A stretch of 64,000 bases of DNA, taken from Dehalococcoidales bacterium. Lineage in GTDB: Bacteria > Chloroflexota > Dehalococcoidia > Dehalococcoidales > RBG-16-60-22. Location of the stretch: NCBI GenBank assembly GCA_050014355.1, contig JBEKDL010000004.1, positions 21,438-85,437 on the forward strand, in the 5' to 3' direction. The notes beneath the pieces were generated by a model. That model saw only the letters and a program-made list of their open reading frames with translations. It did no database searches and was not told the DNA's origin. A program made the translations under genes and the position numbers. Of the stretch, positions 2,192 through 64,000 are shown one piece after another. Position 1 is the first letter of the stretch, and each line of letters begins with the position of its first letter.

Positions 2192-3370
2192 ATGAAATTT
2201 TCGCCGCTGTTATATAAAATCCCGGATTACCCTTTCCGCAAAGTCGGCAGGATTTCCCGGGAGGCCGAACAGCGTAATGGGGTGCGCGTTATCAACGCCC
2301 GTATCGGTATCCCCGATGTCGAAGCCCCGAAAGCTATCAAGGAAGCCCTGGCGAAGTATGTCCTCGCGGATAAGTCCACTTTCGGCTACCCCTGCGATGT
2401 GCATCCGGAACGCGGTATCCCTGAACTCATCGAGGCCATTATCGAAGACTATCGCGTGAAACACGCCGTTAACCTCCGCCCGGAAAATATCATGGTCACC
2501 AGCTGGGCTAAAGAAGTACTGTACGATATGGCCTACCTGTTTGAGCCGGGAACGGTATTTATCCCCGACCCCGTTTATCCCGTTTATGAAGCCGCGACGG
2601 TGCTCTCCAATCACCGGCCGGTAAGAGTGGCGACCTCGTCGGCCACCGGCTGGCTGCCCGAATTTAATTTCTCCAAAAAAAGCGAAAAACCCGTGGCGTT
2701 TTATTTTTGCGACCCCAATAACCCCACCGGCGCGGTGGCCGGGCACGATTATTATGTCAATCTATTGAAAAAGATGAAAGAGTCCGATGTCACGGGCATT
2801 TTCGATAAAGCCTACAAGGACTATGTTTTCGATATTAAAACAAAGCCATTTTCCATCACCCAGATTCCCGAAATCATGGAACGCGGGTACGAGATTGTTT
2901 CCCTCTCCAAGCACTACAACTTCGTCGGCATCGGGCTGGCCTGGATTGTCAGCAGCGAAGCCAACATCGACCGGTGGCTTAAGGCCTCCAGCCAGCACCG
3001 CCAGGGCGTGGAATGGTACAAACAGAAAGCCGGCGTAGAGGCTTTGAAAAATCCGGCAGTCAAGGCGGAAATGCACGCCTACTTTAAAGAGCTTAAGGAG
3101 AGAAGGGACATTTTCGTCAGGGGACTGCAGGAGCTGGGGCTGACGGTGGCCGTGTCTGAAGCCACGCCGTACCTCTGGATACAGGCCCCGGACGGCTTCG
3201 ATGATGAAGACTTCGTGCTGAATACTTTGATAAACAAAGCGCACGTGGCCTTTATGCCGGGTTCATACTTCGGGGCCAGCGGTAAAGGCTATATGCGGGC
3301 GACCCTGTTCCTCTCCCGGAGTGAAATCGAAGAAGCGCTGGAGCGCATACGGAAAGTAAAAACGTGGTGA
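2192..3370 (+). CDS. PLP-dependent aminotransferase, class I/II
   Basis: It has the DPNNPTG motif and the SLSKHYN PLP-lysine motif typical of class I aminotransferases. The substrate cannot be assigned from sequence. Confidence 0.8.
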   Translation: MKFSPLLYKIPDYPFRKVGRISREAEQRNGVRVINARIGIPDVEAPKAIKEALAKYVLADKSTFGYPCDVHPERGIPELIEAIIEDYRVKHAVNLRPENIMVTSWAKEVLYDMAYLFEPGTVFIPDPVYPVYEAATVLSNHRPVRVATSSATGWLPEFNFSKKSEKPVAFYFCDPNNPTGAVAGHDYYVNLLKKMKESDVTGIFDKAYKDYVFDIKTKPFSITQIPEIMERGYEIVSLSKHYNFVGIGLAWIVSSEANIDRWLKASSQHRQGVEWYKQKAGVEALKNPAVKAEMHAYFKELKERRDIFVRGLQELGLTVAVSEATPYLWIQAPDGFDDEDFVLNTLINKAHVAFMPGSYFGASGKGYMRATLFLSRSEIEEALERIRKVKTW

Positions 3371-3403
3371 AATCACAGCGATGATAGAGCGGCGGATGAG
3401 GAC

Positions 3404-4297
3404 TTGGACGGCATACTGAACATTGATAAGCCCGCGGGCAACACATCCTACGGCGTTATCGCCAGGATAAAGCGCCTCACTGGCGAGAAGCGCGTGGGAC
3501 ACGCCGGCACGCTCGACCCTGACGCCACAGGAGTCCTCCCCGTCTGCCTCGGCAAGGCCACGCGCGTTGTCCAGTACCTGACCGACGCCACTAAAACCTA
3601 CCTGGCCGTTATCGAGCTGGGGACTGCCACCGATACTTACGACGCCGCCGGGAATATTATCCAGCGCGGCGACCCTTCAGGCATCGACCGCAATCGCCTG
3701 GAGTCAGCCCTTAACCGGTTCAGGGGCACCATTTCCCAGACCCCTCCCATGTACAGCGCCCTGAAGCACCAGGGGCAGCCCCTCTATAAGCTGGCGCGCG
3801 CCGGCATCAGCGTGGAGCGTAAAAGCCGCACGGTCACCATTCACCAACTGGTAATAACCGACTGGCAACCCCCGATTATCACTTTAAAAATCGAATGCAG
3901 CAAGGGTACTTATATCCGTTCGCTAGCTCACGACCTCGGGCAGGCGCTCGGCTGCGGCGCTTACCTTAAAAACCTCAAGCGAACAAGGTGCGGGATTTTC
4001 GATATCAAAGAAGCTATCTCATTATCGCGACTGGAAGAAGCCTGCCGCGATGGCAATCTGGAGAACTTTTTGCTCCCCATCGATTATGCTCTCCGGGACT
4101 TCCGCGCCGTGGTTATCGATGAGGCGGCGGAAAAAGCCATGAAGCAGGGCAACACCCTGGCGCTAAAGCAAGTTGATATGAAGTCCAATACGAAAGTGTG
4201 TCTCTGCCGCGCTTATGCGCCAGACGGGCGTTTCCTGGGTCTGCTCCGTTATATTCCCGATAGCGGCCGGTGGCAGCCGGAAAAGGTGCTTGTTTAG
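3404..4297 (+). CDS. truB: tRNA pseudouridine(55) synthase
   Basis: It has the N-terminal ILNIDKPAGNTS and the catalytic-Asp motif GHAGTLDPDATGVLPV. The start is TTG, with GAGGA upstream. Confidence 0.92.
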   Translation: MDGILNIDKPAGNTSYGVIARIKRLTGEKRVGHAGTLDPDATGVLPVCLGKATRVVQYLTDATKTYLAVIELGTATDTYDAAGNIIQRGDPSGIDRNRLESALNRFRGTISQTPPMYSALKHQGQPLYKLARAGISVERKSRTVTIHQLVITDWQPPIITLKIECSKGTYIRSLAHDLGQALGCGAYLKNLKRTRCGIFDIKEAISLSRLEEACRDGNLENFLLPIDYALRDFRAVVIDEAAEKAMKQGNTLALKQVDMKSNTKVCLCRAYAPDGRFLGLLRYIPDSGRWQPEKVLV

Positions 4298-4382
4298 GGC
4301 GCTTTAAGCCAACCTTTTACGTCCGTCTGCGTTGTACTATAATAGAAGATATTGTTAATTTGTTAATTTAGAGGGGGTAAAT

Positions 4383-8741: not shown

Positions 8742-9428
8742 ATGAACATCATCAAGACCGCAGCCTACTGGCTGTTTATCCTTTGCCTGCCAGTCCTGCT
8801 GATAACTACGAGCGTAAAAATCGCGGCCAACAGCTCGGAGCTGTACCGCTATGGTTTTAACAAATACGACATCAGCCAGGTAACGGGACTATCCCCGGCG
8901 GAACTGGATAAGGTCACAACCGGGCTGATATCGTATTTCAACTCAAACCAGGAATACATCGACCTGACGGTAATTAAAGACGGTAAACCATTCACGCTTT
9001 TTAACGAACGCGAGGCCGGCCATCTGAAGGACGTCAAAGGCCTGTTCCGGCTGGTCTGGTGGCTGCTGCTGGGCACCTTGATTTACTCCGTTATCTACGC
9101 CGCTCTGAACTATACTGTCTGGAAAGACCGGCGGCGGGTGGCGTGGGCGCTTATCGGCGGGAGCGGCCTGACTATCGCGCTGGTGATAGGCCTGGGTCTG
9201 ATGATTTCACTGAATTTCGACCAGTTCTTTTACGATTTCCACCTTATCAGTTTCGCCAACAACCTGTGGCAGCTCGACCCGTCTACGGACTATCTCATCA
9301 TGCTTTTCCCGCAGGGTTTCTGGTATGATGCGGCGCTTTTCTGCACCCTGGGCACCGCGGCGCTGGCGCTTTTCCTGGGAGGCACGGGCTGGTGGCGGTT
9401 GAGAAAAGAAAAACCGGTTAAAGTGTGA
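8742..9428 (+). CDS. integral membrane protein, TIGR01906/DUF1461-like
   Basis: It has an N-terminal TM segment, an extracytoplasmic segment with YRYGFNKY...EREAGHLKDVKGLF, and 3-4 further TM segments. The family was recalled from memory. Confidence 0.6.
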   Translation: MNIIKTAAYWLFILCLPVLLITTSVKIAANSSELYRYGFNKYDISQVTGLSPAELDKVTTGLISYFNSNQEYIDLTVIKDGKPFTLFNEREAGHLKDVKGLFRLVWWLLLGTLIYSVIYAALNYTVWKDRRRVAWALIGGSGLTIALVIGLGLMISLNFDQFFYDFHLISFANNLWQLDPSTDYLIMLFPQGFWYDAALFCTLGTAALALFLGGTGWWRLRKEKPVKV

Positions 9429-9443
9429 GGTATGAATCATCAC

Positions 9444-10529
9444 CTAAGCCTCGGCTGCTTTCTTCTTAAAAACGAACGAAATCACGATTAAGACCGCTCC
9501 GACCGCGAGCACCGCGATACTGAAAGCCAGCATTTTGCCGGTGACATCGCGATAGAGCGCATCAAGCCACGGCCCCAGGGAAGGTACTTTTTGCGGCAAC
9601 GCATTCAGAAGCGACTGGGCAGGATTGAAACTCCGCGCCGCCAAAACACCCGCCAGGTCCAGAGCCCCGAAGATAAACAGGTCAATCCCCAGCGCGCGGC
9701 TAGGTTCCTGCACATTGCGGTAAATCAGGAAAATACCCGCCGCCAGAAGCACCATTAAGACGATTAACCAGTAATAGGCGCTTTGGAAATAGCCGATATA
9801 TTTTCTGACCAGCAGCAGGTCGTCCATAGTATTCGCCGGAATGTTGGTCTGGTCGGCCACCAGATTATCCGGAATTTGCGCGGCATACTGGTTATAGTAA
9901 TAATCGAAATATGGCCTGACCAGCGTCTCCAGCAAGCCTGAAAGCGCCGGGGCGCTGCCCGTTGCGGTTATCTGCGCCTGGATTTGCTTAAGATATATAT
10001 CGACGTAAGATTTCAATTGCGCATCGGACATCAGGGCGAGGTCAGGCGTCAACAGGCTCCGGTACTGCTGAAAATTTTGAAAGATATAAGGTTCCAGCTG
10101 GGTCTGGATATTACCGCGCAGCCAGGAGGTGAGCTGCTTGCTCATTTCCTGCCACAGGCTGTTTTTGAGGTCGGCTTTTAAAGTGTTCAGCGGTATCTTG
10201 ATAGCGAGTTTATCAGTCTTGCCCAGGAAAAAGTTATAGCCGGAATCGATACTCTGGTCCGCCTGCGCTTTAAACCAGGGCTTCTGGTCGTCGATGGCGT
10301 TATAGACGGCGTCTTTTAAAAAGTATAGCTCGGCAGGCAAATAATCTTTTATCTGCTGGTCGGCGATGTCCCGCGCTACAGCCGAGATATCGATTCTATC
10401 CACCTGCTGCTTGACGAAACCGGGAGAAAGCAAGGTGCTGTTCAGCATAAAAGCCATACCGAAAATAGAAAGCGAAAGAAAAAGCAGAAAACCGAGGACG
10501 AATGCACCAAAGCCTTTTAAAAAGCCCAT
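9444..10529 (-). CDS. hypothetical membrane protein (N- and C-terminal TM segments around a large external domain)
   Basis: I chose the start at the second Met because GGAGG lies 7 nt upstream of it. The ORF track extends to 10568. Confidence 0.6.
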   Translation of the reverse strand: MGFLKGFGAFVLGFLLFLSLSIFGMAFMLNSTLLSPGFVKQQVDRIDISAVARDIADQQIKDYLPAELYFLKDAVYNAIDDQKPWFKAQADQSIDSGYNFFLGKTDKLAIKIPLNTLKADLKNSLWQEMSKQLTSWLRGNIQTQLEPYIFQNFQQYRSLLTPDLALMSDAQLKSYVDIYLKQIQAQITATGSAPALSGLLETLVRPYFDYYYNQYAAQIPDNLVADQTNIPANTMDDLLLVRKYIGYFQSAYYWLIVLMVLLAAGIFLIYRNVQEPSRALGIDLFIFGALDLAGVLAARSFNPAQSLLNALPQKVPSLGPWLDALYRDVTGKMLAFSIAVLAVGAVLIVISFVFKKKAAEA

Positions 10530-10641
10530 GCGGCAGCCTCCATCTAACTCTGGCCAATATTTTAACATACCAGCGAGGGTAATTTCATTCGCTTCGGGAG
10601 GTTGACTGTGAGATGGGTATCGAGTAGAATTACAATATCCT

Positions 10642-10715
10642 GGGCGGTTAGCTCAGCTGGTTAGAGCGCCGCGTTGACATCGCGGAGGTCAGTGGTTCAA
10701 GTCCGCTACCGCCCA
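10642..10715 (+). tRNA. tRNA-Val (anticodon GAC)
   Basis: A hand-folded cloverleaf fits: acceptor GGGCGGT/ACCGCCC, anticodon stem CCGCG/CGCGG with loop TTGACAT, and T-arm AGTGG-TTCAAGT-CCGCT. CCA is not encoded. Confidence 0.9.
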
Positions 10716-10731
10716 TTTTTAGATTAATTGA

Positions 10732-10763
10732 CCCTTATGTGAATCATTACATAAGGGTTTTTT
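10732..10763 (+). terminator. rho-independent terminator after tRNA-Val
   Basis: A 9-bp stem CCCTTATGT/ACATAAGGG with an 8-nt loop is followed by TTTTTT. Confidence 0.8.
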
Positions 10764-11043
10764 ACTAAAAGTAAGCCCATAACTACTACTACCTCGCTTG
10801 TAATTTTCTGGTTGTTGACAATATACTAAATCAATCATTCCGGTTTTCAAGCCTGAACAAGTGTAGCTGGTTGATATTACCTTATCTGCTGTAAGGAGTA
10901 CAGGCATCATTGGGCTCATTTCGAATTGACAGTCTCCAGTGATACAAATATTCCGCTATAAATCATAAACGAAACGCTCTTGCGAAAAGCAGGTACGCTG
11001 AAAATTTTTAAGTTATTATATATGACCAAGAGAGTGTGAAAAG

Positions 11044-12318
11044 ATGTTGTTAACGGATGACGAAAAACGGATTCTGGACGGCAAGCGAGGTGAGATTGCC
11101 CAAAGATGTATGACATTTTTAGTGGATTATGGTGAAGCGGCGGGAGCAGACAAACTGATTGATCTGGATGGAACAGTAGATTTGCATCCGGGTTCCGGCT
11201 GGGTTGGAGCTTATGATATCAAGCTGGAAGAAATTGCGGAATTGGCCAGAAAAGGTGAAGGATTTAAAGTACCTACCTTCTCCGACAAGGCCACTGCGCC
11301 TGGCTTTATTGTGGATGGATGGGAAAACTGCGGCGTCCTGCCCAGCAGCGACCCGACCTTTCACAAAAAGTGCCTGGAGGACCTCCAACCATATATTGAT
11401 ATGGGAATGGTGCCTACTTTCTCCTGCAACCATTACCTGGTAAGTTCGTTTTGGCCTTCTGTAGGCCAGCATTGTGCCTGGGTAGAGAGTTCAGCTGTTC
11501 CTTGGGTTAACGCCGTTTTAGGGGCCAGAAGTAATTTTGACGGTTGTTTTCAGACGGCGTATTTGGGAAAGGTCCCGGCATATGATATGCATCTGACCGA
11601 GAACCGCGCGGCGACGGTACTGGTACGCTGTGAGACTGAATTAAAAAGAGATATGGACTATGATTTATTCGGTTGGGCGGTTGGAGAAACTCTGGGGTTG
11701 AAAGTTCCGGCCTTCGTCGGTATCGGCAGACCAACAACCACTCAACTGGTGAAAATGAATTCCGCTCTGAACACAGGCGGGCAGGTACGCATGTATCATA
11801 TTCCCGGAAGAACTCCAGAAGCACCCACCCTGGAAGTGGCGTTTCAAGGGAAGAAACCCAAAGAGACCATATCCATTACGCGGGATGATTTGAAAAGAGT
11901 CTATGAACTGATGAATTACGGTTCCAGCGATGATATTGATTTTGTTTATTTAGGCTGCCCTCACTACAATATTGAAGAATTGAGAAAGGTGGCCGGTTTA
12001 CTTGAGGGTAAGAAATGCCAAACCAGGTTATGGGTAATGACAAACCCTCCCACTTATAAAGTGGCCGATATGGCAGGGTACCGGGAAAAAATCGAAGATG
12101 CAGGGGGCATACTATTATCCGGAACCTGTCCCGGCTTACTCAACGGGGTAGTAATGCCTCCGTCCGGGGTCCCCAAGGTTATAGCTACGGATGCAGCCAA
12201 ACAGGACTATTACATTACCGGCCATTGCCATCCAAATAAAGTTCAAGTCCGATACGGTACGACGGAAGATTGTGTTGATGCAGCCGTCACGGGAAAATGG
12301 AAAGGGGAGTGGAGGTAA
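11044..12318 (+). CDS. aconitase X (AcnX) catalytic/large subunit, DUF521 family
   Basis: The N-terminus MLLTDDEKRILDGKRGE and the overall 424-aa architecture are typical of the AcnX large subunit. It is followed 8 nt later by the small swivel subunit. Confidence 0.75.
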   Translation: MLLTDDEKRILDGKRGEIAQRCMTFLVDYGEAAGADKLIDLDGTVDLHPGSGWVGAYDIKLEEIAELARKGEGFKVPTFSDKATAPGFIVDGWENCGVLPSSDPTFHKKCLEDLQPYIDMGMVPTFSCNHYLVSSFWPSVGQHCAWVESSAVPWVNAVLGARSNFDGCFQTAYLGKVPAYDMHLTENRAATVLVRCETELKRDMDYDLFGWAVGETLGLKVPAFVGIGRPTTTQLVKMNSALNTGGQVRMYHIPGRTPEAPTLEVAFQGKKPKETISITRDDLKRVYELMNYGSSDDIDFVYLGCPHYNIEELRKVAGLLEGKKCQTRLWVMTNPPTYKVADMAGYREKIEDAGGILLSGTCPGLLNGVVMPPSGVPKVIATDAAKQDYYITGHCHPNKVQVRYGTTEDCVDAAVTGKWKGEWR

Positions 12319-12325
12319 GCATCTA

Positions 12326-12754
12326 ATGAATAAGCAAGCAAATAAAATTATTCTCAAGGGAAGAAAAGTAATAGGCGGAATTGCCCAGGGTGAAGCGCTG
12401 GTATCCAAAATGCCCTTAATGGGTTGGGGCAACGTTGATTCAAAAAATGGTTATACCGTAGAAAGAAACCATCCCCTTTACGAAGTTCCCTATAAAGGAA
12501 AGGTGCTGGTTTTCACTGAACCGAGGGGTTCCGGCGGCTTTGTGGGGTATGGCAGGTCTCGGCTTTTCGGCACTAACCCTGCAGCTTTCCTCTACAGAAA
12601 GGGGAATAATCTAACCGTCTTCGCGGCCATGGTAATGAATGTGCCTACAGTCACCGATTTTGACCAAGACCCTACTGAAGTCATTGAAACCGGAGACTAC
12701 GTTATTGTGAATGGGGATAGGGGGATTGTTGAGGTGATAAAAAAAACTAGATAG
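12326..12754 (+). CDS. aconitase X swivel-domain/small subunit, DUF126 family
   Basis: At 142 aa it matches the DUF126 pattern (GEALVS...EPRGSGG). The ATG at 12326 is preceded by GGGGAGTGGAGG. The longer ORF-track start at 12191 lies inside the upstream gene. Confidence 0.72.
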   Translation: MNKQANKIILKGRKVIGGIAQGEALVSKMPLMGWGNVDSKNGYTVERNHPLYEVPYKGKVLVFTEPRGSGGFVGYGRSRLFGTNPAAFLYRKGNNLTVFAAMVMNVPTVTDFDQDPTEVIETGDYVIVNGDRGIVEVIKKTR

Positions 12755-21674: not shown

Positions 21675-22603
21675 TATTTTTTCTCCCCTTTCACGCCGAC
21701 CAGTCCCAGAAAGTAGGATTCGAGGTCTCCCTGCTCGACCACCAGTCTGGTTGGCGGAAGACCCGCTTCGACCAGCAGCATCGCGATTCGGTCGGGATAC
21801 TGCACCGCCAGTTTATCCGTGATAACGAGCGAGCTATTTTCACCCGGCCTCGCCGTGATACCAGCTTTCCCCAATACAGATAGGGCGGCACCCGTGTCAC
21901 GAACGTCGACCGCCAGGCGTTGTTCTTCCTGTTCCGCCAGCTCTCCGGCGTACAGTTCCTTCACCAGCCGCCCCTCGTGAACCACGCCTATCCGCATGGC
22001 CAGCCTGGCCACTTCACTTAAGATATGGCTGGAGATAAAAATAGTCGCGCCGTCGTTTTCGGCGAGACCGCGCAGCAGGTTCCTTACTTCGACGATACCG
22101 GCCGGGTCCAGCGCGTTCGCCGGCTCGTCCAGGATGAGTAAATCGGGATGATGGATAAGCGCCTTGGCCAGTCCCAGCCGCTGGGCATTGCCGAGCGAAA
22201 GTGTTCTGGCACGCCGGCTGGCGTAAGGTGTCAACCCTAATTCTTGGATAACCTTTTCCACCGCGCCGGCGTCTTTCAGGTGGCGAAGTCGCCGGACTAT
22301 CTCGATATTTTCCCGGACGGTCAGGTCGGGATAAGCGTGGGGAGTCTCGACAAGATACCCGACCCGCTGCCAGATTGACCTTTGACCGGGCTGCACCTTC
22401 ATACCGAAAAGCGAGACGGAGCCGGCGCTCGGTCTAATCATTCCCAGCAGCATACGAATGGTCGTTGTCTTGCCTGCCCCATTCAACCCTAAAAATCCGG
22501 GAATTTCCCCGCTGCGGATATTCAGGGAGAGGTCATTAACGGCCGTAAAGCTGCCAAAACGCTTCGTTAGCCCGGAAGCCATAATCGAAAGTGATTCGCC
22601 CAT
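21674..22603 (-). CDS. ABC transporter ATP-binding protein (ABC-2/DrrA-like)
   Basis: It has Walker A GLNGAGKTT, the signature LSLGNAQR and Walker B LILDEP. Confidence 0.88.
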   Translation of the reverse strand: MGESLSIMASGLTKRFGSFTAVNDLSLNIRSGEIPGFLGLNGAGKTTTIRMLLGMIRPSAGSVSLFGMKVQPGQRSIWQRVGYLVETPHAYPDLTVRENIEIVRRLRHLKDAGAVEKVIQELGLTPYASRRARTLSLGNAQRLGLAKALIHHPDLLILDEPANALDPAGIVEVRNLLRGLAENDGATIFISSHILSEVARLAMRIGVVHEGRLVKELYAGELAEQEEQRLAVDVRDTGAALSVLGKAGITARPGENSSLVITDKLAVQYPDRIAMLLVEAGLPPTRLVVEQGDLESYFLGLVGVKGEKK

Positions 22604-22752
22604 TTTCAGTCGCTCCAGTCCTGTTAGCTATATAATTATAGATTTTGGAATAATATGTTATAATTATTATAATTATTATAGTCCACAATATTGTAATTGT
22701 CAATGTAATATTATATAATAATTATAAATATAATATCATATGGAGGCGGCAC
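22604..22752. promoter_or_regulatory. divergent promoter/operator region, extremely A+T-rich with reiterated TATAATTAT units
   Basis: It contains the perfect palindrome TATAATTATA (22629-22638) and runs such as TTATAATTATTATAATTATTATA. It lies between the ABC operon and the divergent TetR gene. Confidence 0.6.
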
Positions 22753-23328
22753 ATGGATGGGTTCGAGCGCAGGAAAGAGCAGAGTAAGGAAGATATCCGC
22801 CGGGCGGCTGAAGAGCTTTTTTCAAAGTTCGGCGCCGACAAGGTCAGCGTCAACGATATTGCCCGTAAAGCCGGCGTATCCCAGGCTACCATTTACAACA
22901 ACTTCGGCAGCAAGGACGAACTGGTGCATGATTACCATAATATGATTGTCAAAATGATTGCCAGCCGTTTCCGCGAGATATTAGTCTGGAAAAAATCGTA
23001 CGTGGAAAAATTGCAGGGTTTTTTGCAGTCCTGGATAGACATCGCCGACCGATACAAAATCGAAATTAAAGACTCCGAAACAAAACCGTCCCGTGATGCT
23101 ATCGGAATCGAAATCGAAAACTCATTCCGGGAATTCATCAAAGAAGGCAAAGACCAGGGCGACCTCCGTTCGGACCTTTCCGACCAGGCCATCATCGCAT
23201 ATTTTAAATTTTTCCAGCAGGGCATCTCCAACAACCCGGGAATCAGCGATAGGATGCGTCGCAATTCAAAACTATCTCGTGACCTGCTTTCGCTTTTTAT
23301 GTACGGAATTAGCGGACAGAGCGGTTAG
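22753..23328 (+). CDS. TetR/AcrR-family transcriptional regulator
   Basis: It has an N-terminal HTH (VSVNDIARKAGVSQATIYNNFGSKDEL), and GGAGG lies upstream. Confidence 0.88.
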   Translation: MDGFERRKEQSKEDIRRAAEELFSKFGADKVSVNDIARKAGVSQATIYNNFGSKDELVHDYHNMIVKMIASRFREILVWKKSYVEKLQGFLQSWIDIADRYKIEIKDSETKPSRDAIGIEIENSFREFIKEGKDQGDLRSDLSDQAIIAYFKFFQQGISNNPGISDRMRRNSKLSRDLLSLFMYGISGQSG

Positions 23329-23670
23329 TTCAGTCAGCAACTCAAGTTATTATGGTTTAAATCCTTTCGCCGGCCACTATGAAGCCTCTTGAATTTGAAA
23401 TATCTCAATTTATTTTTTTATCGGCCGGGAATGGATTGCGTAATCAAATTCTTTGAATTAAACAATTGGACTATATCCAGAATATATAAAACGCCCGACA
23501 CGCGGCATTTAATCTCTATCCTGCCTGACCATCTGGCCAAGGTAAAAGCTCGCCTAACGTCCAACCCATAATTACCCTGAAGCAGGGCGCGCTATAGGAT
23601 ATTTTTCGATACACTTAAAGTATCAAGCAGATGATTCAATTCACGAGCTGATGAAAAAAGGAGGCTGAAA

Positions 23671-38167: not shown

Positions 38168-38195
38168 CTGGATTCCTGCTTTCACCGGAATGATG
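38168..38195. repeat. REP-like element, degenerate copy of the CTGGATTCCGGCTTTCGCCGGAATG family
   Basis: CTGGATTCCTGCTTTCACCGGAATGATG lies between the convergent cobB and VLRF1-like genes. A perfect-hairpin copy lies at 61738-61763. Confidence 0.7.
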
Positions 38196-52647: not shown

Positions 52648-54054
52648 GTGACCGAAAAAACACCTGTGCGCCCGGACAACTGGAGCCAGCTTTCCCACGA
52701 ACAGAAACGCGGGTTGAGACTGAAATGGCTGGCGGATACAGCTAAAGGCATCAAGTTTGTCAGCCAGGACGCGGAAAAAAATTACAAAATAAAGCTGCAG
52801 CGGCTGATTGACGTTTACAGCATCCGGGAGCCGGACCGCGTACCGGTCAATATCTCGGCGGGGGTCGTGCCGCTGTATGCCTCCGGCATCGATTACCATA
52901 CCGCGATATATGACTACGAAAAGGCGGTGGAGGCGTTCGCCAGATTCAACGAAGAGCACGGCATCGAGCTTGATAACTATTTTGTCCCCGCCATTTTCCC
53001 AGCCCGTGTGGTCGACAAACTTGACTACAGGCTCTACGCCTGGCCGGGCCGCGGCATACCCGAAAGCGCCGCCGGCTACCAGTTCAACGAAGGCGAATAC
53101 ATGAAAGCTGACGAGTACGACGCCTTTATCCGCAATCCGTCCGATTTCTGGATGCGCACTTACCTGCCCCGTCTCTTCGGCGCTTTCGAGCCGCTGGGGA
53201 AGGTCGGGCCGATTACCGACATCCTCGAGTTCCCTATCGGCTCACTGATGCCGTTGAGCCGGCCGGATGTCCAGGCCACGCTGCGCAAGCTGCTCGATGC
53301 GGGCAAAGAGCTGGCGCGGTTCGGTAAAATTACCGGCGATTTCATCCGGAAAGTCCAGGAAAAAGGCTATCTCACACCTTCCGCCATGAACGTGGCGCAC
53401 GCCCCCTTCGACACTTTAGGGGATACTTTGAGAGGAACGCAGGCCATAATAAAAGACATGTTCCGGCGACCGGATAAACTCCTGGAAGCCCTGGACGCTA
53501 CCGCTGACCTGACCATCAGCTCCATCCTGGGCTCCGCTAACGCCGCCCGGGCTTTTAGGGTGTGGTTCCCCCTGCACAAAGGCGCCGACGGCTGGATGTC
53601 TCAAAAGCAGTTCGACACTTTTTATTTCTCTCCCCTGAAAAAAGTCATGGACGCTTTTATCAACGAGGGCTATATCATCACATTGTTCGCTGAAGGCAGC
53701 TTCGATACGCGCCTGGAGCGCTTCACCGACTTTCCGAAAGGCACCGTCCACTGGCAGTTCGACCGCACGGACATGGCCCGCGCTAAAAAGCTCCTCGGGG
53801 GTAAATTCAGCCTAGAAGGCAACGTGCCGTCTTCCCTGCTGACCACCGGCAATCCGAAGGATGTTAAGGAGCTTTGCCGCAAGCTCATCGAGGTCTGCGG
53901 CATGGGCGGCGGCTATATCCTGGCCGGTGGGGCTTCCGTCAGTAATCCCAAAGTGGATAACCTCAAAGCCATGGTGGAGGCCACTAAAGAATACGGGGTC
54001 TACGGGGAGCGTGAACTGGCGGGCCAGGACGACTTGTTTGTCAGCGGATATTAA
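52648..54054 (+). CDS. uroporphyrinogen-decarboxylase (URO-D) superfamily protein, function unknown
   Basis: Its size, APFDTLGDTLRG and the C-terminal GGGYILAGGASV resemble the URO-D/MtaA-like fold. The GTG start follows GGAGG. Confidence 0.5.
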   Translation: MTEKTPVRPDNWSQLSHEQKRGLRLKWLADTAKGIKFVSQDAEKNYKIKLQRLIDVYSIREPDRVPVNISAGVVPLYASGIDYHTAIYDYEKAVEAFARFNEEHGIELDNYFVPAIFPARVVDKLDYRLYAWPGRGIPESAAGYQFNEGEYMKADEYDAFIRNPSDFWMRTYLPRLFGAFEPLGKVGPITDILEFPIGSLMPLSRPDVQATLRKLLDAGKELARFGKITGDFIRKVQEKGYLTPSAMNVAHAPFDTLGDTLRGTQAIIKDMFRRPDKLLEALDATADLTISSILGSANAARAFRVWFPLHKGADGWMSQKQFDTFYFSPLKKVMDAFINEGYIITLFAEGSFDTRLERFTDFPKGTVHWQFDRTDMARAKKLLGGKFSLEGNVPSSLLTTGNPKDVKELCRKLIEVCGMGGGYILAGGASVSNPKVDNLKAMVEATKEYGVYGERELAGQDDLFVSGY

Positions 54055-54151
54055 GACCCTGCTTTTCTCCCTTGCCCCCTTTGTTCCCTCCCTAAAGGGC
54101 GAGGGGATTAAGGGTATTGGGTATCACTCATTAGAAAATGAAAGCTCCCAG

Positions 54152-54200
54152 TTGAATTAAAGTTTTAAAATTGATAATATATATGCGGATATGTGCATAT
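54152..54200 (+). promoter_or_regulatory. arsR promoter and candidate ArsR operator
   Basis: The promoter is TTGAAT (54152-54157), a 17-nt spacer, then TAATAT (54175-54180) preceded by TG. The inverted repeat ATATGC-N8-GCATAT lies at 54181-54200. Confidence 0.5.
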
Positions 54201-54231
54201 TAGCTTATTTCCCAATCAAAGTAGGAAAGCC

Positions 54232-54594
54232 GTGCAGGATTTAATCAATACATTGAAGGCTCTCTCCGACGAGACAAGACTCAGGATTATGAATATCTTA
54301 CTGGAGAGGGAATGCTGTGTCTGCGAAGTTATGCAGGCTTTAGATATTTCTCAAACAAGAGCTTCCCGAAACCTGGGCATTCTCCAGAAAGCAGGTTTTT
54401 TAAAGACCAAGCGCGAAGGCCCATGGATAGTGTATTCCGTAGACCGGGAGACAAACAACCAATACGTAAGTTCTCTTACGCAATTATTTCAAAATTCTTC
54501 AGTCAGCAGCGATGTTTTGAAAAAAGACAGACAAAATCTTAAACACGCCCAACGTATAGGTCCCGGCTGCAAGACAAAGGCAATTGATGCTTGA
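54232..54594 (+). CDS. arsR: ArsR/SmtB-family metalloregulator
   Basis: It has LKALSDETRLRIMNILLERECCVCEV (the CVC metal site) and an HTH. The GTG at 54232 is preferred because of the AGGAAAG RBS. The ORF track starts at 54193. Confidence 0.85.
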   Translation: MQDLINTLKALSDETRLRIMNILLERECCVCEVMQALDISQTRASRNLGILQKAGFLKTKREGPWIVYSVDRETNNQYVSSLTQLFQNSSVSSDVLKKDRQNLKHAQRIGPGCKTKAIDA

Positions 54595-54799
54595 AATAAA
54601 GAGAACAGCCATCAGTCTAGATGAAAATGACCTTATAGAACTGGAAAGAATCTGTATTGACGGAGACAAGGAAGGTGCTCTCGGATTCCTGAAAAAGTTC
54701 TATAAAAGGATTATTTTCTCTCAGCAAGGTAAGTTGAAATCACATTTAGACACAGGTGTTAACCCCGTGGACAAGTTTAATAAGAATAAAAACAGGTAG
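54584..54799 (+). CDS. hypothetical small protein (71 aa) between arsR and acr3
   Basis: The ORF overlaps the arsR 3' end by 11 nt. I recognise no family, and the local G+C is lower than in acr3. Confidence 0.4.
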   Translation: MMLEIKRTAISLDENDLIELERICIDGDKEGALGFLKKFYKRIIFSQQGKLKSHLDTGVNPVDKFNKNKNR

Positions 54800-54841
54800 T
54801 GCGAAATCCTGTAAATAACAATACTCAAAAGGATTAAAAAC

Positions 54842-55909
54842 GTGAATCAACAAAACACTACCACGAGCAAGCTGTCCTTTCTAGACAGGTTTTTAACGCT
54901 CTGGATATTCCTGGCGATGGGTCTGGGGGTGGGGCTGGGCTATTTCATCCCCCGAGTGGCCGACTTCATCAGCTATTTCCAGGTGGGCACCACTTCGATT
55001 CCTATCGCTATCGGGCTTATCCTGATGATGTACCCGCCGCTGGCCAAGGTCAGGTACGAGGAGATGGGGCGCGTCTTCCGCAACTGGCGTGTCCTTGGAC
55101 TTTCGCTCGCACAGAACTGGGTTATCGGCCCTATTCTCATGTTCCTGCTGGCGGTCCTCTTCCTCGGCCATATCTGGCCCAATCCCGACTACATGGCCGG
55201 GCTGATATTAATCGGCCTGGCGCGCTGCATCGCCATGGTCATCGTCTGGAACGAGCTGGCCAGGGGCGATAGAGAGTACGCCGCGGGACTGGTCGCTTTC
55301 AACTCCGTGTTCCAGATTGTCTTTTACTCGGTTTATGCTTATGTCTTTATCACCGTGCTGCCCGGATGGTTCGGGTTGAAAGGCTCCACGGTGAACATAA
55401 CCATCGGCGAGATAGCCAGGAGCGTGTTAATCTACCTGGGTATACCCTTCTTCGGAGGGATGCTAACGCGCTTTACTTTAATCAAAGCCAGAGGGCGAGA
55501 GTGGTATGAGAGCAAGTTCATCCCCAAAATCAGCCCCATCACGCTGGCGGCGCTGCTTTTCACCATCGTGGTTATGTTCTCTCTCAAAGGCGAAATAATC
55601 GTGCAGATTCCTCTGGACGTGTTAAAAATCGCCGTCCCGCTTTTAATCTATTTCGTCATCATGTTCCTGGTATCGTTCTACATGGGGAGGAAAATCGGGG
55701 CCGACTACAGCCAGACAGCCAGCATTGCTTTCACCGCCGCCAGCAATAACTTCGAGCTGGCCATCGCCGTGGCCGTGGCCGTTTTCGGTATCGGTTCCGG
55801 GCAGGCGTTTGCCGCCGTCATCGGCCCCCTGGTAGAAGTGCCCGCGCTCATCGGCCTGGTCAATGTCGCCCTCTATTTCCAGCGCCGGTATTTCAAGCAA
55901 GCCTCTTGA
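54842..55909 (+). CDS. acr3: ACR3-family arsenite efflux transporter
   Basis: The N-terminal [13 protein letters not shown] and a 10-TM profile are typical of Acr3/ArsB(ACR3). The start is GTG. Confidence 0.88.
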
Positions 55910-61299: not shown

Positions 61300-61623
61300 A
61301 TGGCTGATATTTTGAATGAAGCTTACGGCATAGTCCAGTGCAAGGAATGTCCCTGGTTTAAAGCCTGTGTCATTCCAATGAAATTTACCGCCCAGGACAT
61401 CCGGCGGCAGCTGGAACAGGCGCCTCCGGGTCTGGGCGCCCCGCAGCAGATAGACGCCGGCATGGAAAACCTGCTGGCCAGCATGGCCACGGCGGCGCAG
61501 GCCTCTTTGCTCGAAGGGTGCCCAATTTTTATCGAGCGGCTGCGCACCAGCCCGAAGCTCGCCCAGCGCCTGAAAGAGCTGATGCAGGACTGGGGCAGCG
61601 AGGAAAAGCCGGGGGAAAAGTAA
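61300..61623 (+). CDS. hypothetical protein (107 aa) with a CxxCx5C...C motif
   Basis: Its composition is balanced and a GGGGGG RBS lies upstream. It carries the CKECPWFKAC motif plus a fourth Cys. The longer antisense ORF 61018-61656 looks like a shadow. Confidence 0.55.
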   Translation: MADILNEAYGIVQCKECPWFKACVIPMKFTAQDIRRQLEQAPPGLGAPQQIDAGMENLLASMATAAQASLLEGCPIFIERLRTSPKLAQRLKELMQDWGSEEKPGEK

Positions 61624-61737
61624 ACTCAAAGCTGAAAAGTCAAAAGTCAAAACCACAGGTCAAAAGTAAAAAACTGGACTAACTGAATCTTCTCTACTGT
61701 CCCGGTTCCATCGGGGCGAAGTAATCCGTTAACCCGA

Positions 61738-61763
61738 CTGGATTCCGGCTTTCGCCGGAATGG
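61738..61763. repeat. REP-like perfect hairpin CTGGATTCCGGC-TTTC-GCCGGAATGG
   Basis: The 8-bp stem is ATTCCGGC/GCCGGAAT. It is related to the copy at 38168-38195 and sits at the left border of the A+T-rich islet. Confidence 0.8.
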
Positions 61764-61825
61764 TTTATCTATCTACAATGAACATCACAAGTATACCATG
61801 ACAACAGGGGATTAAAATAATTTAT

Positions 61826-61981
61826 TCAGGATAATACACTTTTTCCAATTGCTATTAAAATAACTATGAGAAACGCACCAAGTAATACGTCACCCCAAAT
61901 AGGCAATATATGGCTTGAAATAATAGCGACCACTATTAATATGCCAACTATACCTAAAACGAGGCCAGATAAGAATCTCAT
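61826..61981 (-). CDS. candidate small 2-TM membrane protein (51 aa), below the ORF-track cutoff
   Basis: My hand translation is MRFLSGLVLGIVGILIVVAIISSHILPIWGDVLLGAFLIVILIAIGKSVLS. AAAGGG lies 7 nt upstream of the ATG. It competes with the 5' part of plus-strand ORF 61866-62486. Confidence 0.4.
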   Translation of the reverse strand: MRFLSGLVLGIVGILIVVAIISSHILPIWGDVLLGAFLIVILIAIGKSVLS

Positions 61982-62057
61982 TAATAACCCTTTGAATAAA
62001 TTGAAAATCTTTTATATTTTACCACTATTAATAAATACGTCAACATGTTTTCAAAAT

Positions 62058-62486
62058 ATGTTAATATATATTGCCATGTCAAAAAAATGGTTTATCTATA
62101 AATATTACAAACTAATCGCTACTATTTCTTACAAATGTATTCTTGTTATTTCTAGTTATACCATATTAACAAACTGGTTTGCCCATATCTATCAAGTATT
62201 CCTAAAAACATGGGCAATATATATTTACCACACAATTCCTTTTATTATTACAGGCGTCTTTGGTGTAGCAACGATTGCTCCATCCATTTTTGATATTTAC
62301 AAGGGGTATAAATTATCAATAAATTCCAATATTGAAATTACTATACCCATAAGAATGTATATAGTTGATTATCAAATACTTGTATATGGATTTCCAGCTT
62401 GTTTAGTTTTTGCTCTTATGTACGGTTATTATTATCATCATAAATTCGGGCAATTCCCAGATTGGAGGTCATTGAAATTATGGTAG
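62058..62486 (+). CDS. hypothetical aromatic-rich membrane protein in the A+T-rich islet
   Basis: The frame stays open for 206 codons (61866-62486) in very A+T-rich DNA, which is unlikely by chance. The hydrophobic part begins near Met 62058/62076. The start is uncertain and I see no obvious RBS. Confidence 0.5.
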   Translation: MLIYIAMSKKWFIYKYYKLIATISYKCILVISSYTILTNWFAHIYQVFLKTWAIYIYHTIPFIITGVFGVATIAPSIFDIYKGYKLSINSNIEITIPIRMYIVDYQILVYGFPACLVFALMYGYYYHHKFGQFPDWRSLKLW

Positions 62487-62519
62487 GCTTTTGGATATTT
62501 TATTCGGCAAGGAGGCATT

Positions 62520-63275
62520 ATGGACCTGGGATTTAAAGGTAAAGTGGCGCTGGTCACCGGCGCGGGCAGCCAGATAGGCTTCGGGAAAGCGATAGCGCTG
62601 CTCCTTGCCAAAGAAGGGTGTGACGCCCTCGCGGTTAACGACATTAACCTCGATGACGCGAAGAAAACGGCGGATGCCGTCAAAGCGCTGGGGCGCAAGG
62701 CCATCGCCGTCAAGGCCGACGTCACTAAAAAAGCCGAAGTGCAGGAGATGGTCAAAAAAGCGCTGGCAGAGTTTAAAAAGATAGACATTCTCGTGAATGT
62801 GGCCGGCGCTATCCTCGGCGGCGGGCCTTTCGATAAACAGGAGGAAGAGCTCTGGGACAAAGAAATGTCCCTCAATTTCAAGGGCACGATGCTCGTGACC
62901 CAGGCGGTCATCCCCGGCATGATAGAGCGTAAATACGGCAAGATAGTTAATATCTCCTCCGGGTCGGTTAGAGCGGCTTTCGGCGTTTCCACATATACTC
63001 TGGCCAAGGGCGCTGTCGAGATATTCACGCGGCACCTGGCGAAAAGTGTCATCAAGGACGGCGTTAACGTCAACTGTGTGTCTCCGGGATGGGCGCTGAC
63101 CAACTTTATTAAAGGTGATAAGGAAGAAGCCAGAAAGCGTTTTTTGCCCGGCACCCCGATTGGCCGGGGCACTACACCGGAAGACATCGCCAACGCGGTA
63201 GTGTTTTTCGCCTCGGATATATCCGGTGATGTCGTGGGGCAGGTGCTTGACGTGACCGGGGGCTCGACCCTTTAA
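62520..63275 (+). CDS. short-chain dehydrogenase/reductase (FabG-like)
   Basis: It has the cofactor motif TGAGSQIGFG and the catalytic S...YxxxK (STYTLAKGAV). Confidence 0.88.
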   Translation: MDLGFKGKVALVTGAGSQIGFGKAIALLLAKEGCDALAVNDINLDDAKKTADAVKALGRKAIAVKADVTKKAEVQEMVKKALAEFKKIDILVNVAGAILGGGPFDKQEEELWDKEMSLNFKGTMLVTQAVIPGMIERKYGKIVNISSGSVRAAFGVSTYTLAKGAVEIFTRHLAKSVIKDGVNVNCVSPGWALTNFIKGDKEEARKRFLPGTPIGRGTTPEDIANAVVFFASDISGDVVGQVLDVTGGSTL

Positions 63276-63306: not shown

Positions 63307-64000
63307 ATGGACCTGGGACTGAAGGGCAAGATAGCGCTGGTAACCGGCGCTGGCAGCCAGATAGGCTTCGGCAAAGCCATTTCTCTAACGCTGGCCAAAG
63401 AGGGTTGTGATATCGCCGTTAACGATATCAACCTCGATGACTCCAAGAAAACGGCGGCGGAGGTCAAGGCCGTGGGACGCAAGGCCATCGCCATCAAGGC
63501 CGATGTCACCAAAAAAGCCGAGGTGCAGGAAATGGTAAAAAAGGCCCTGGCCGAGTTCGGCAGGATAGACATACTGGTCAATAACGCCGGGGGCATTCAT
63601 CCGCAGGGACCTTTTACCGACCAGAAAGAAGAGACCTGGGACAAAGATTTTAACCTCAATATCAAGGGTTCCATGTTATGTGCCCAGGCGGTGCTGCCCG
63701 CCATGGCAGAGCGAAGGTACGGCAAGATTATCAATATCTCCTCCAGCGTGGCAAAAATGGCTTTCCCAGGAGTTTCCACCTACGCTATGGCCAAGGCGGC
63801 GATTTACGTTTTCACCAGGGGGCTGGCCAAGTCGGTCATCAAGCAAGGCATCACCGTTAACAGCGTCGCCCCGGGGTGGGCGCTGACCAACTTCGATAAA
63901 ACACCGCCGGAGGAGCTGATTAAACGCTTTACGCCGGACACGCCCATCGGGCGGGGTACCACGCCGCAGGATATCGCCAACATGGTGACCTTCCTCGCAT
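63307..64000 (+). CDS. short-chain dehydrogenase/reductase, tandem paralogue (3' end beyond the window)
   Basis: My hand translation begins MDLGLKGKIALVTGAGSQIGFGKAI and contains NNAGG and STYAMAKAAI. AAGGAGG is the RBS. It is missing from the ORF track because no stop occurs inside the window. Confidence 0.85.
   Translation, partial: MDLGLKGKIALVTGAGSQIGFGKAISLTLAKEGCDIAVNDINLDDSKKTAAEVKAVGRKAIAIKADVTKKAEVQEMVKKALAEFGRIDILVNNAGGIHPQGPFTDQKEETWDKDFNLNIKGSMLCAQAVLPAMAERRYGKIINISSSVAKMAFPGVSTYAMAKAAIYVFTRGLAKSVIKQGITVNSVAPGWALTNFDKTPPEELIKRFTPDTPIGRGTTPQDIANMVTFLA

Follow-up and report, generated by a model that had tools for sequence, protein, structure and literature searches.

A small A+T-rich islet with two divergent membrane-protein genes, very probably acquired, in a Dehalococcoidales genome

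The window analysed here is a 64,000-nucleotide (nt) stretch of the genome of a Dehalococcoidales bacterium (assembly GCA_050014355.1, contig JBEKDL010000004.1, positions 21,438 to 85,437), and all positions below are counted from its first letter. Towards the end of the window lies an inserted A+T-rich islet, preceded by the probable terminator of a gene conserved in Dehalococcoidia and followed by the ribosome-binding site of an SDR gene. It carries two small membrane-protein genes that are transcribed away from each other, and there is little doubt about this anatomy of two divergent genes with their expression signals. The islet was very probably acquired horizontally, and the two proteins probably function jointly. 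The best overall explanation, for which confidence and doubt are evenly balanced, is an acquired autonomous two-gene membrane cassette encoding a conflict-type pair. A paired membrane toxin/immunity or exclusion module is a tentative guess.

The G+C content of the islet is 28.9%, close to the 30% estimated in a first-pass annotation of the same DNA, and the mean of the window is 0.538. In 300-nt windows the G+C content falls from 0.58-0.60 at 61300-61700 to 0.26-0.31 at 61800-62500 and is back at 0.54 by 62500, the two flanks lying overall at 0.52-0.62. With 0.2625, the 400-nt window beginning at 62001 is the lowest of the entire 64 kb; elsewhere, no 500-nt bin falls below 0.42. This was further confirmed by the G+C content of third codon positions (GC3), which is 0.25 in the larger gene and 0.27 in the smaller one, compared with 0.67-0.72 in the neighbouring bioY gene, the gene for a 107-amino-acid (aa) protein and the SDR gene. 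Both codon usage and composition deviate from those of the host, as is characteristic of horizontally acquired islets. The list of open reading frames (ORFs) contains none inside the insert other than the two membrane-protein genes.

The existence of the two genes is established by comparison. An exhaustive HMMER scan of 1.84 billion cluster representatives returned two relatives of the larger protein, P0003 (E 9e-6) and P0004 (E 8.5e-4), both matching its C-terminal part only. The family has three members in total, each a singleton cluster among about 15 billion proteins. The two relatives are situated on short ENA metagenome contigs of 775 nt (L082) and 545 nt (L083), where the larger gene encodes 99 aa from an ATG and 93 aa from a GTG, respectively. 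Both contigs repeat the layout of the window: the peptide gene is on the opposite strand, the spacer is 90-92 nt long and the start of the larger gene is equivalent to 62076. The pair of proteins is conserved, and encoded divergently in the same way, in three sequences that are unrelated to one another. The first-pass annotation had preferred two divergent small membrane genes to a single gene of 206 aa, and the repeated layout supports that choice, the start at 62076 included.

Other searches did not enlarge the family. A word-seeded search of 5.8 billion proteins found only the window's own 181-aa gene call when queried with the 206-aa frame and nothing when queried with the 51-aa peptide, and a profile built from the three members gave no further ones. 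Comparison by tblastn and blastn with phage (50,697 records) and plasmid records produced only chance transmembrane (TM) similarity to P-type ATPases. Four scans of IMG/VR contigs yielded no further copies, and the 13 hits of a degenerate DNA pattern for the peptide core over JGI metagenome contigs were all due to chance, as seen upon translation. One HMMER match, P0002, was discarded: the protein is repetitive, and its similarity is confined to residues 38-76, in the non-coding upstream part of the 206-codon frame. A match to DUF7598 (E 1.5e-4, 22 bits, below the cut-off of 27) was rejected as lying largely in the same non-coding part and reflecting hydrophobic bias.

The smaller gene, on the minus strand, is without annotation in any of three public assemblies. 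The ORF is present exactly where the first pass had translated it by hand, and with the same translation. An open frame of at least 51 codons occurs in 75% of shuffled islets, so that the length of the ORF is not significant by itself, and it was therefore validated by its homologues. These begin with MKFLMAFITGAVAIVIVVAFITSGILPWWASVLF (L082) and MNFLVGLIAGIIGILVVVAIITSGILPVWASVLL (L083), are also encoded on the strand opposite to the larger gene and have ungapped identities to the peptide of 51% and 63%, respectively (E 5e-10 and 6e-14 by tblastn against a small local database). Along the minus frame, identity decreases from the second to the first to the third codon position in each pair of the three copies (0.85, 0.54 and 0.32 in one case), a pattern that points to a coding frame under purifying selection on this strand. 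Over 61826-61981 the minus-frame proteins are 51-63% identical and the products of the opposite frame 35-40%. Both frames are fairly conserved because they share third codon positions.

The peptide consists of two hydrophobic stretches joined by its best-conserved segment, VVA-I-(T/S)-S-(G/H)-ILP-x-W. The predicted structure is a two-TM hairpin whose tight turn is conserved (T/S-S-G/H-I-L-P-x-W) and whose two ends are both cytoplasmic. Both metagenome contigs end inside the peptide gene, L082 at codon 45 and L083 at codon 41. On short low-coverage contigs such shared ends may be chance, or they may reflect a repeat, or variation between strains, at this end of the cassette.

In the core of the larger protein, residues 44-136, a loop of about 30 residues separates two TM segments. 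The loop carries the motif VAT-x-x-PS-x-x-DI(Y/F)-x-G(F/Y), has invariant A-T, P-S, D-I, G, E and D positions, and the basic tail of the protein ends with FPD-x-R-x-x-(K/R)-L-W. The core is 28-33% identical to the homologues. In the window copy it is preceded by about 42 extra N-terminal residues containing one further hydrophobic stretch. Because its N-terminal W-F-x-Y motif is repeated at residue 46, this copy may contain an internal duplication. As the first-pass annotation had noted, the C-terminal part is rich in Tyr, Ile and Phe, these residues making up 12.5%, 16.2% and 7.4% of the 136 aa. This is not a functional signature, however. The homologues contain 2% Tyr, and the richness in Tyr is therefore an effect of A+T-rich codons.

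The larger gene is the last part of a plus-strand ORF of 206 codons (61866-62486), which is stop-free for 221 codons when followed from 61821. None of 5000 shuffled islets reached 221 open codons, the maximum being 174, in agreement with the original judgement that so long a frame is very unlikely to arise by chance. The ORF is composed of the 136-aa gene, 31 stop-free spacer codons and the antisense shadow of the peptide gene. The shadow frame is separated from the larger gene by a stop codon in L082 and is out of frame with it in L083. Nevertheless, the shadow itself is open in all three copies, because a stop on the plus strand needs a Tyr, His or Gln codon in the minus-strand gene, and of these three residues the peptide contains only a single His. 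By the same comparison the public gene call P0001 (181 aa, start at 61941) is wrong, its first 45 residues being a false N-terminal extension that is translated from the antisense shadow.

The spacer between the two starts is 94 bp long in the window (61982-62075), within the 80-95 bp expected from the first pass. Alignment of the three spacers shows conserved blocks separated by unconserved sequence, and the blocks coincide with the predicted expression signals. Invariant columns amount to 22 of 32 inside the predicted elements and to 14 of 62 outside them (Fisher p = 1.7e-5), a figure that is somewhat circular because the elements were partly recognised through their conservation.

On the minus strand the small gene has a Shine-Dalgarno (SD) sequence, which is found at the equal 6-nt distance from the start in the homologues, as AAGGAA in L082 and AAAGGA in L083, with four of the six columns invariant. 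The earlier impression that the ribosome-binding site of this gene is the better one thus holds in all three copies. The predicted promoter is strong, of a near-consensus, TG-extended sigma-70 type. Its equivalent in L083, TTGACA-16-TAGAAT with TG, was called independently by the promoter scan and agrees with the consensus at 11 of 12 positions. The predicted leader of the small-gene transcript is about 28 nt long.

The larger gene has a different arrangement. Its extended -10 element corresponds to TGaTAATAT in L082 and TGgTAATAT in L083, each followed by the six nucleotides ATCGGC and then by the ATG or GTG, and the L082 site was also found in the promoter scan. A -10 element thus lies 6-8 nt before the start in all three copies, and an SD-like sequence is absent from them. 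A -10 box that abuts the start codon is a hallmark of leaderless mRNAs, and we infer that the mRNA of the larger gene would be leaderless or nearly so.

About 67 bp separate the two predicted transcription starts, which direct transcription away from each other. The -35 hexamer of the minus-strand promoter (62038-62043) and the best candidate for a plus-strand -35 element (62040-62045) are both within the same 8 bp, 62038-62045. Because the two -35 regions occupy the same base pairs, the promoters probably compete for RNA polymerase or are jointly controlled. The palindrome that the first-pass annotation placed in this spacer is indeed there. It is largely explained by the minus-strand -35 element together with the TGn of the plus-strand extended -10 element. 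In the homologues it is only loosely kept: dyads are found at the equivalent place, but they differ in arms and spacing (ACACT..AGTGT in L082, ACAT..ATGT in L083). It could also be an operator; neither product of the cassette looks like a DNA-binding protein. No terminator was found after the larger gene by the terminator scan, and transcription probably reads through into the downstream SDR genes as a result. The promoter scan also reported a promoter-like sequence, TTGAAA-16-GATATT, at 62472-62499. The coordinates of the features are collected in Table 1.

Table 1. Features of the islet and its left border, in window coordinates
Feature	Position	Strand	Basis or remark
A+T-rich insert, self-contained two-gene cassette	61765..62500	no strand	about 0.74 kb, 29% G+C; composition and limit of similarity to L083
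Host hairpin ATTCCGGC-TTTC-GCCGGAAT with T-rich tail	61742..61761	+	8-bp stem; terminator scan
Gene for 51-aa hydrophobic peptide MRFLSGLVLGIVGILIVVAIISSHILPIWGDVLLGAFLIVILIAIGKSVLS	61826..61981	-	ORF; homologues; grand average of hydropathy (GRAVY) 2.07
Antisense shadow of peptide gene plus spacer, non-coding	61866..62075	+	frames broken in homologues
Predicted SD sequence of small gene, AAAGGG	61988..61993	-	6 nt before ATG
Predicted small-gene promoter, TTGACG-16-TAAAAT with TG	62016..62043	-	promoter scan, 10/12 plus TG
Palindrome AACATGTTTTCAAAATATGTT	62042..62062	no strand	left arm over both -35 elements, right arm over TGn of plus-strand promoter
Predicted extended -10 element of larger gene, TGtTAATAT	62059..62067	+	8 nt before ATG; no SD sequence
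Gene for 136-aa membrane protein	62076..62486	+	two homologues; start aligned with theirs; hydropathy
Post-stop tail GCTTTTGGATATTT	62487..62500	+	14 nt, 12/14 common to L083; right end of insert

The borders of the insert were located in two ways. Its left end was placed at the jump in composition directly 3' of the host hairpin (61761/61765). Its right end (62500/62501) is where the 3' flanks of the window and L083 become completely divergent in the alignment, from 62501 on, and is 8 nt upstream of the SD sequence of the host SDR gene. A Logan contig (L001, run SRR7028477) and a 36-kb ENA contig (L084) are 100% identical to the window across both junctions. Since these assemblies are independent, an assembly chimera is very unlikely. 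The protein of the larger gene is also contained in a JGI source.

Horizontal acquisition, which the first pass had proposed, is supported by the extreme composition, by the absence of the islet from related genomes and by the unrelated context of the L082 copy. The 107-aa protein encoded to the left of the islet has relatives in at least 155 genomes. The loci of the best 80 of these, at 67-85% protein identity and all from uncultured Dehalococcoidia or Dehalococcoidales bins of wetlands, peat, groundwater and sediments, served for comparison. No homologue of either cassette gene is present in these 80 loci, and none of them has a comparable composition trough beside the 107-aa gene, the lowest 400-nt windows being mostly at 0.35-0.50 G+C. 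Synteny is lost directly after the 107-aa gene; in the relative L002, for instance, a convergent gene for a 253-aa protein follows about 50 nt after it.

In the homologous copies, too, the G+C content is lower than in the flanks (0.36 versus 0.48 in L082 and 0.40 versus 0.44 in L083). In the flank of L082 (527-774), about 65 nt from the cassette, there is a truncated helicase-related ORF. It is homologous to residues about 693-753 of a 1151-aa protein of the Synechocystis plasmid pSYSX (E 1e-16), the full-length relative of which has a DNA methyltransferase and a VapC toxin as neighbours. About 22 residues separate the end of the homology from the end of the ORF, so that the L082 cassette is situated in a different and apparently disrupted context. 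Such a truncated neighbour points to mobility.

Two short repeats are associated with the islet. The exact 14-nt direct repeat AATGGTTTATCTAT occurs at 61759-61772, across the left border of the islet, and at 62086-62099, over codons 4-8 of the larger gene (its WFIY motif). It has no extension and is no more than marginally unusual, an equal score being reached by one of 500 shuffles. Chance could account for it, as could microhomology used at insertion. The 10-mer GGCAATATAT is found three times and only within the islet, at 61902-61911 (+), 62066-62075 (-) and 62213-62222 (+), that is, at the ILP codons of the peptide, at the promoter and start on the plus strand and at the second WxxY motif of the larger gene. 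This is unexpected against the whole window. However, some 10-mer occurs three times in 6% of shuffled islets, and the triplicate was dismissed as not significant.

The cassette resembles several known kinds of small system without belonging to any of them by sequence. Toxins of type I toxin-antitoxin (TA) loci with a divergent partner (TisB/IstR-1, ShoB/OhsC, ZorO/OrzO; also Hok and Fst) are likewise almost wholly hydrophobic peptides of fewer than 60 aa, and with its 51 aa and a GRAVY of 2.07 the cassette peptide is of this kind. Such loci are also compact (<1 kb), have a divergent partner gene and show a patchy distribution typical of horizontal transfer. The partner in the cassette, however, is a membrane protein conserved at 28-33% amino-acid identity and not a small non-coding antitoxin RNA, and the predicted transcripts do not overlap. 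A charged tail, common in type I toxins, is missing from the cassette peptide, which probably spans the membrane twice. The sequences are not similar, and Rfam and Pfam gave no match.

GhoT is a two-TM membrane peptide of about 57 aa that is paired with a protein of about 100 aa, GhoS, a soluble RNase encoded in the same operon. The cassette is like this type V system in sizes only. Its partner protein is a membrane protein, divergently transcribed from a promoter of its own, and no sequence similarity was detected. Phage morons and holin/antiholin pairs are also autonomous units with a composition unlike that of their neighbours and with small proteins of two or three TM segments. In contrast to these, the cassette has no phage context, endolysin or PHROG match. 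Its proteins match no holin family in Pfam or PHROGs, its neighbours are bioY, the 107-aa gene and SDR and riboflavin genes, and it matches no PADLOC defence model.

The terminal repeats with target duplication, or the transposase, of an insertion sequence or miniature inverted-repeat transposable element were not found. Integron gene cassettes are comparable as compact units of about 0.7 kb that hold orphan genes, occur in unrelated contexts and have no recombinase of their own, but the islet has two divergent genes with their own promoters and is a single unit rather than an array. No attC R''/R' core pair was recognised by eye at the cassette ends and no integrase is adjacent; a formal attC search was not made. 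The back-to-back promoters in one short control region recall the divergent overlapping promoters of Tn10 tetA/tetR, the arrangement in the cassette being a prediction from its sequence. The -10 box abutting a start codon without an SD sequence has its counterpart in the leaderless lambda cI message made from PRM. Unlike these two systems, the cassette genes encode no apparent DNA-binding protein.

In the favoured explanation, the peptide gene would be transcribed from its strong promoter and translated by means of its SD sequence, the larger gene would be transcribed from its extended -10 promoter as a leaderless mRNA, and the two promoters would interfere through the shared -35 region. Both products would act together in the cytoplasmic membrane, one small membrane-active protein being countered by a membrane partner, as in a selfish or conflict-type pair. 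Such a pair is favoured because of the rarity of the family, its patchy spread and its self-contained expression signals. A bolder form of the same idea is doubtful. In it, the cassette would be a previously unrecognised, ultra-rare mobile membrane module for toxin/immunity or exclusion, the shared -35 region would constitute a minimal two-state switch by which one gene is transcribed at a time, and the module would move between distant lineages without a recombinase of its own.

The two proteins might instead be an accessory membrane complex of an ordinary kind (for instance an accessory subunit pair, a small channel or a factor for stress or the envelope), horizontally acquired but with no role in conflict or addiction. 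This is a possibility to be held tentatively, and it is nearly as likely as the conflict-type pair. It agrees with the conservation of the two genes together and with the lack of matches to defence and toxin models. Moreover, the strong, constitutive-looking promoter of the peptide gene, with its good SD sequence, would be unusual for an unrepressed toxin. A selfish element is the better fit to the extreme rarity, three singleton clusters among so many proteins, and to the unrelated contexts with one disrupted gene. It is unlikely that the islet is what remains of a phage or another mobile element (a moron, a holin/antiholin pair or a superinfection-exclusion pair, for example), the other parts having been lost or never having been in the insert. 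An autonomous A+T-rich transcription unit with small TM proteins would suit such an origin, and so would the helicase-related neighbour in L082, of a kind that is found beside a DNA methyltransferase and VapC on the Synechocystis plasmid. However, there is no PHROG match below E 0.01, the phage records and IMG/VR were negative by protein, DNA and motif, and no endolysin, integrase or phage gene lies beside the islet in the window.

It is still less probable that the genes of the insert are inert and that the insert, having displaced the upstream region of the SDR gene, now drives SDR transcription by read-through or from the site at 62472-62499. The insert does end 8 nt before the SDR SD sequence, has no terminator after the larger gene and contains the promoter-like site. 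Against this, both ORFs are intact in DNA of 27-35% G+C, where stop codons are frequent, both are conserved in two other lineages, and the distance of the promoter-like site is not conserved in L083. A type I TA locus, with the 51-aa peptide as toxin and the divergent transcript as RNA antitoxin, is very improbable. The small hydrophobic peptide and its divergently transcribed neighbour would be expected of one, and a direct repeat matching at 12 of 13 nt between the peptide gene (61899-61911) and the larger gene (62210-62222) would permit pairing between the two mRNAs. The partner is nevertheless protein-coding and conserved as an amino-acid sequence, the predicted transcripts have no overlap, Rfam has no match, and a 10-mer occurring three times is seen in 6% of shuffled islets, as described above. 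Least credible of all is a single plus-strand gene of 181-206 aa with a spurious minus-strand ORF, or else a chimeric assembly. The frame is open for 221 codons and gene callers did choose 181 aa of it, but it is broken in the homologues by a stop (L082) and a frame shift (L083), the minus frame has a coding pattern, and the start, SD sequence and promoter of the peptide gene are conserved. A chimera is contradicted by the three sequences that are identical over both junctions.

Several results weigh against the acquired conflict-type cassette or against parts of it, in addition to the circularity of the Fisher figure. No empty site was found among the relatives, because the nearest of these are distant (only 85% protein identity) and synteny is broken after the 107-aa gene. 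An exact look-up of the SDR protein, made in the search for an empty site, returned no record. No recombinase was found, and the repeat search and end-to-end alignments gave no terminal inverted repeats or target duplication. The left end of the cassette is not comparable, because two of the three members are cut by contig ends inside the peptide gene. The gap between the -10 box and the start is 8 nt in the window but 6 nt in L082 and L083, and the start codon of the larger gene of L083 is GTG, a codon that serves poorly for leaderless initiation in some bacteria.

No match to a curated family or to a phage, plasmid or defence model backs the functions that the first pass had suggested (toxin/immunity, holin-like, exclusion), and nothing ties the proteins to toxicity. 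Six proteins searched against Pfam, NCBIfam, PHROGs and PADLOC had no match above noise; PADLOC reported no family at E <= 1 for any of the six, and PHROGs none below E 0.01, the best being a family of unknown function at E 0.014. PDB sequence profiles had no match either. The AlphaFold model of the larger protein, with a predicted local distance difference test (pLDDT) score of 60 and a predicted template modelling score (pTM) of 0.27, was unusable for a fold search, in which models of low confidence yield meaningless matches. The single-sequence AlphaFold model of the peptide is one long helix with a pLDDT of 96, which does not settle the hairpin.

Housekeeping genes surround the islet, in the order riboflavin synthesis genes, bioY, 107-aa gene, islet, two tandem SDR genes. 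The 107-aa gene (61300-61623) belongs to no Pfam family and its product has a CxxC-like N-terminus (VQCKECPW). It adjoins bioY only in the window and a few relatives. Directly 3' of its stop codon, at 61632-61672, there are repeats of GTCAAAAG (GTCAAAAGTCAAAA and GTCAAAAGTAAAAA, 20 nt apart), in place of which the relative L002 has a T-rich TAGTTTG-like repeat. The hairpin at the left border of the islet is probably the terminator of the 107-aa gene and marks that border as host DNA. A second copy with two mismatches is present at 38172-38191, and none of 100 shuffles gave two matches. About 27 nt are common to both copies (ACTGGATTCCnGCTTTCnCCGGAATG), each of which stands at the 3' end of a gene. 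The second copy makes the label "REP-like", used in the first pass, defensible, but the hairpin is terminator-like host DNA and not a terminal repeat of the insert. The 27-nt element was not found in the loci of the 80 relatives and may be a lineage-specific REP-like terminator element.

The two SDR genes that follow the islet directly (62520-63275 and 63309-64000+) are paralogous. Most relatives have a single SDR homologue, located 2-4 kb from the 107-aa gene on the opposite strand, showing that the neighbourhood is rearranged. No integrase, transposase or tRNA is near the islet, the only tRNA of the window being at 10641-10716, and Rfam and tRNA scans had no match within or beside the islet.

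Milder A+T-rich islets (0.33-0.36 G+C) with small orphan genes were observed in related loci: L013 at 9067-9291, with a GIY-YIG-like ORF of 74 aa, and L063 at 2764-3452 and L032 at 3560-4361, each with a pair of small membrane ORFs. Small foreign inserts seem to be common in this lineage. Elsewhere in the window, patches of lower G+C content (0.42-0.47) lie at 10500-12500, 22500-23500 and 54000-55000. The patch at 10500-12500 begins at the tRNA, a tRNA-Val. The other two hold regulator-like ORFs. Judging from their translations, a 191-aa ORF at 22753-23328 looks TetR-like and a 133-aa ORF at 54193-54594 looks ArsR-like; the L084 gene that matches the latter is annotated HTH_5/HTH_20.

The islet is an example of how small genes escape annotation, since three public assemblies miss the 51-aa gene and start the larger gene wrongly, within the antisense shadow of the smaller one. 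It provides two new protein families that form a pair, a three-way comparison being enough to read their expression signals directly, and the construct, at about 740 bp, is compact enough to be synthesised and tested. Small horizontally acquired islets are a familiar category, to which the finding adds a new orphan gene pair whose regulatory layout is unusually clean and supported by comparison. Should the conflict-type interpretation fail, a well-characterised orphan insert would still be left. If the pair does serve for toxin/immunity or exclusion, it would represent a new minimal type among small-protein conflict systems and one of the rare cases in which genes were recently acquired by uncultured Dehalococcoidia of wetlands.

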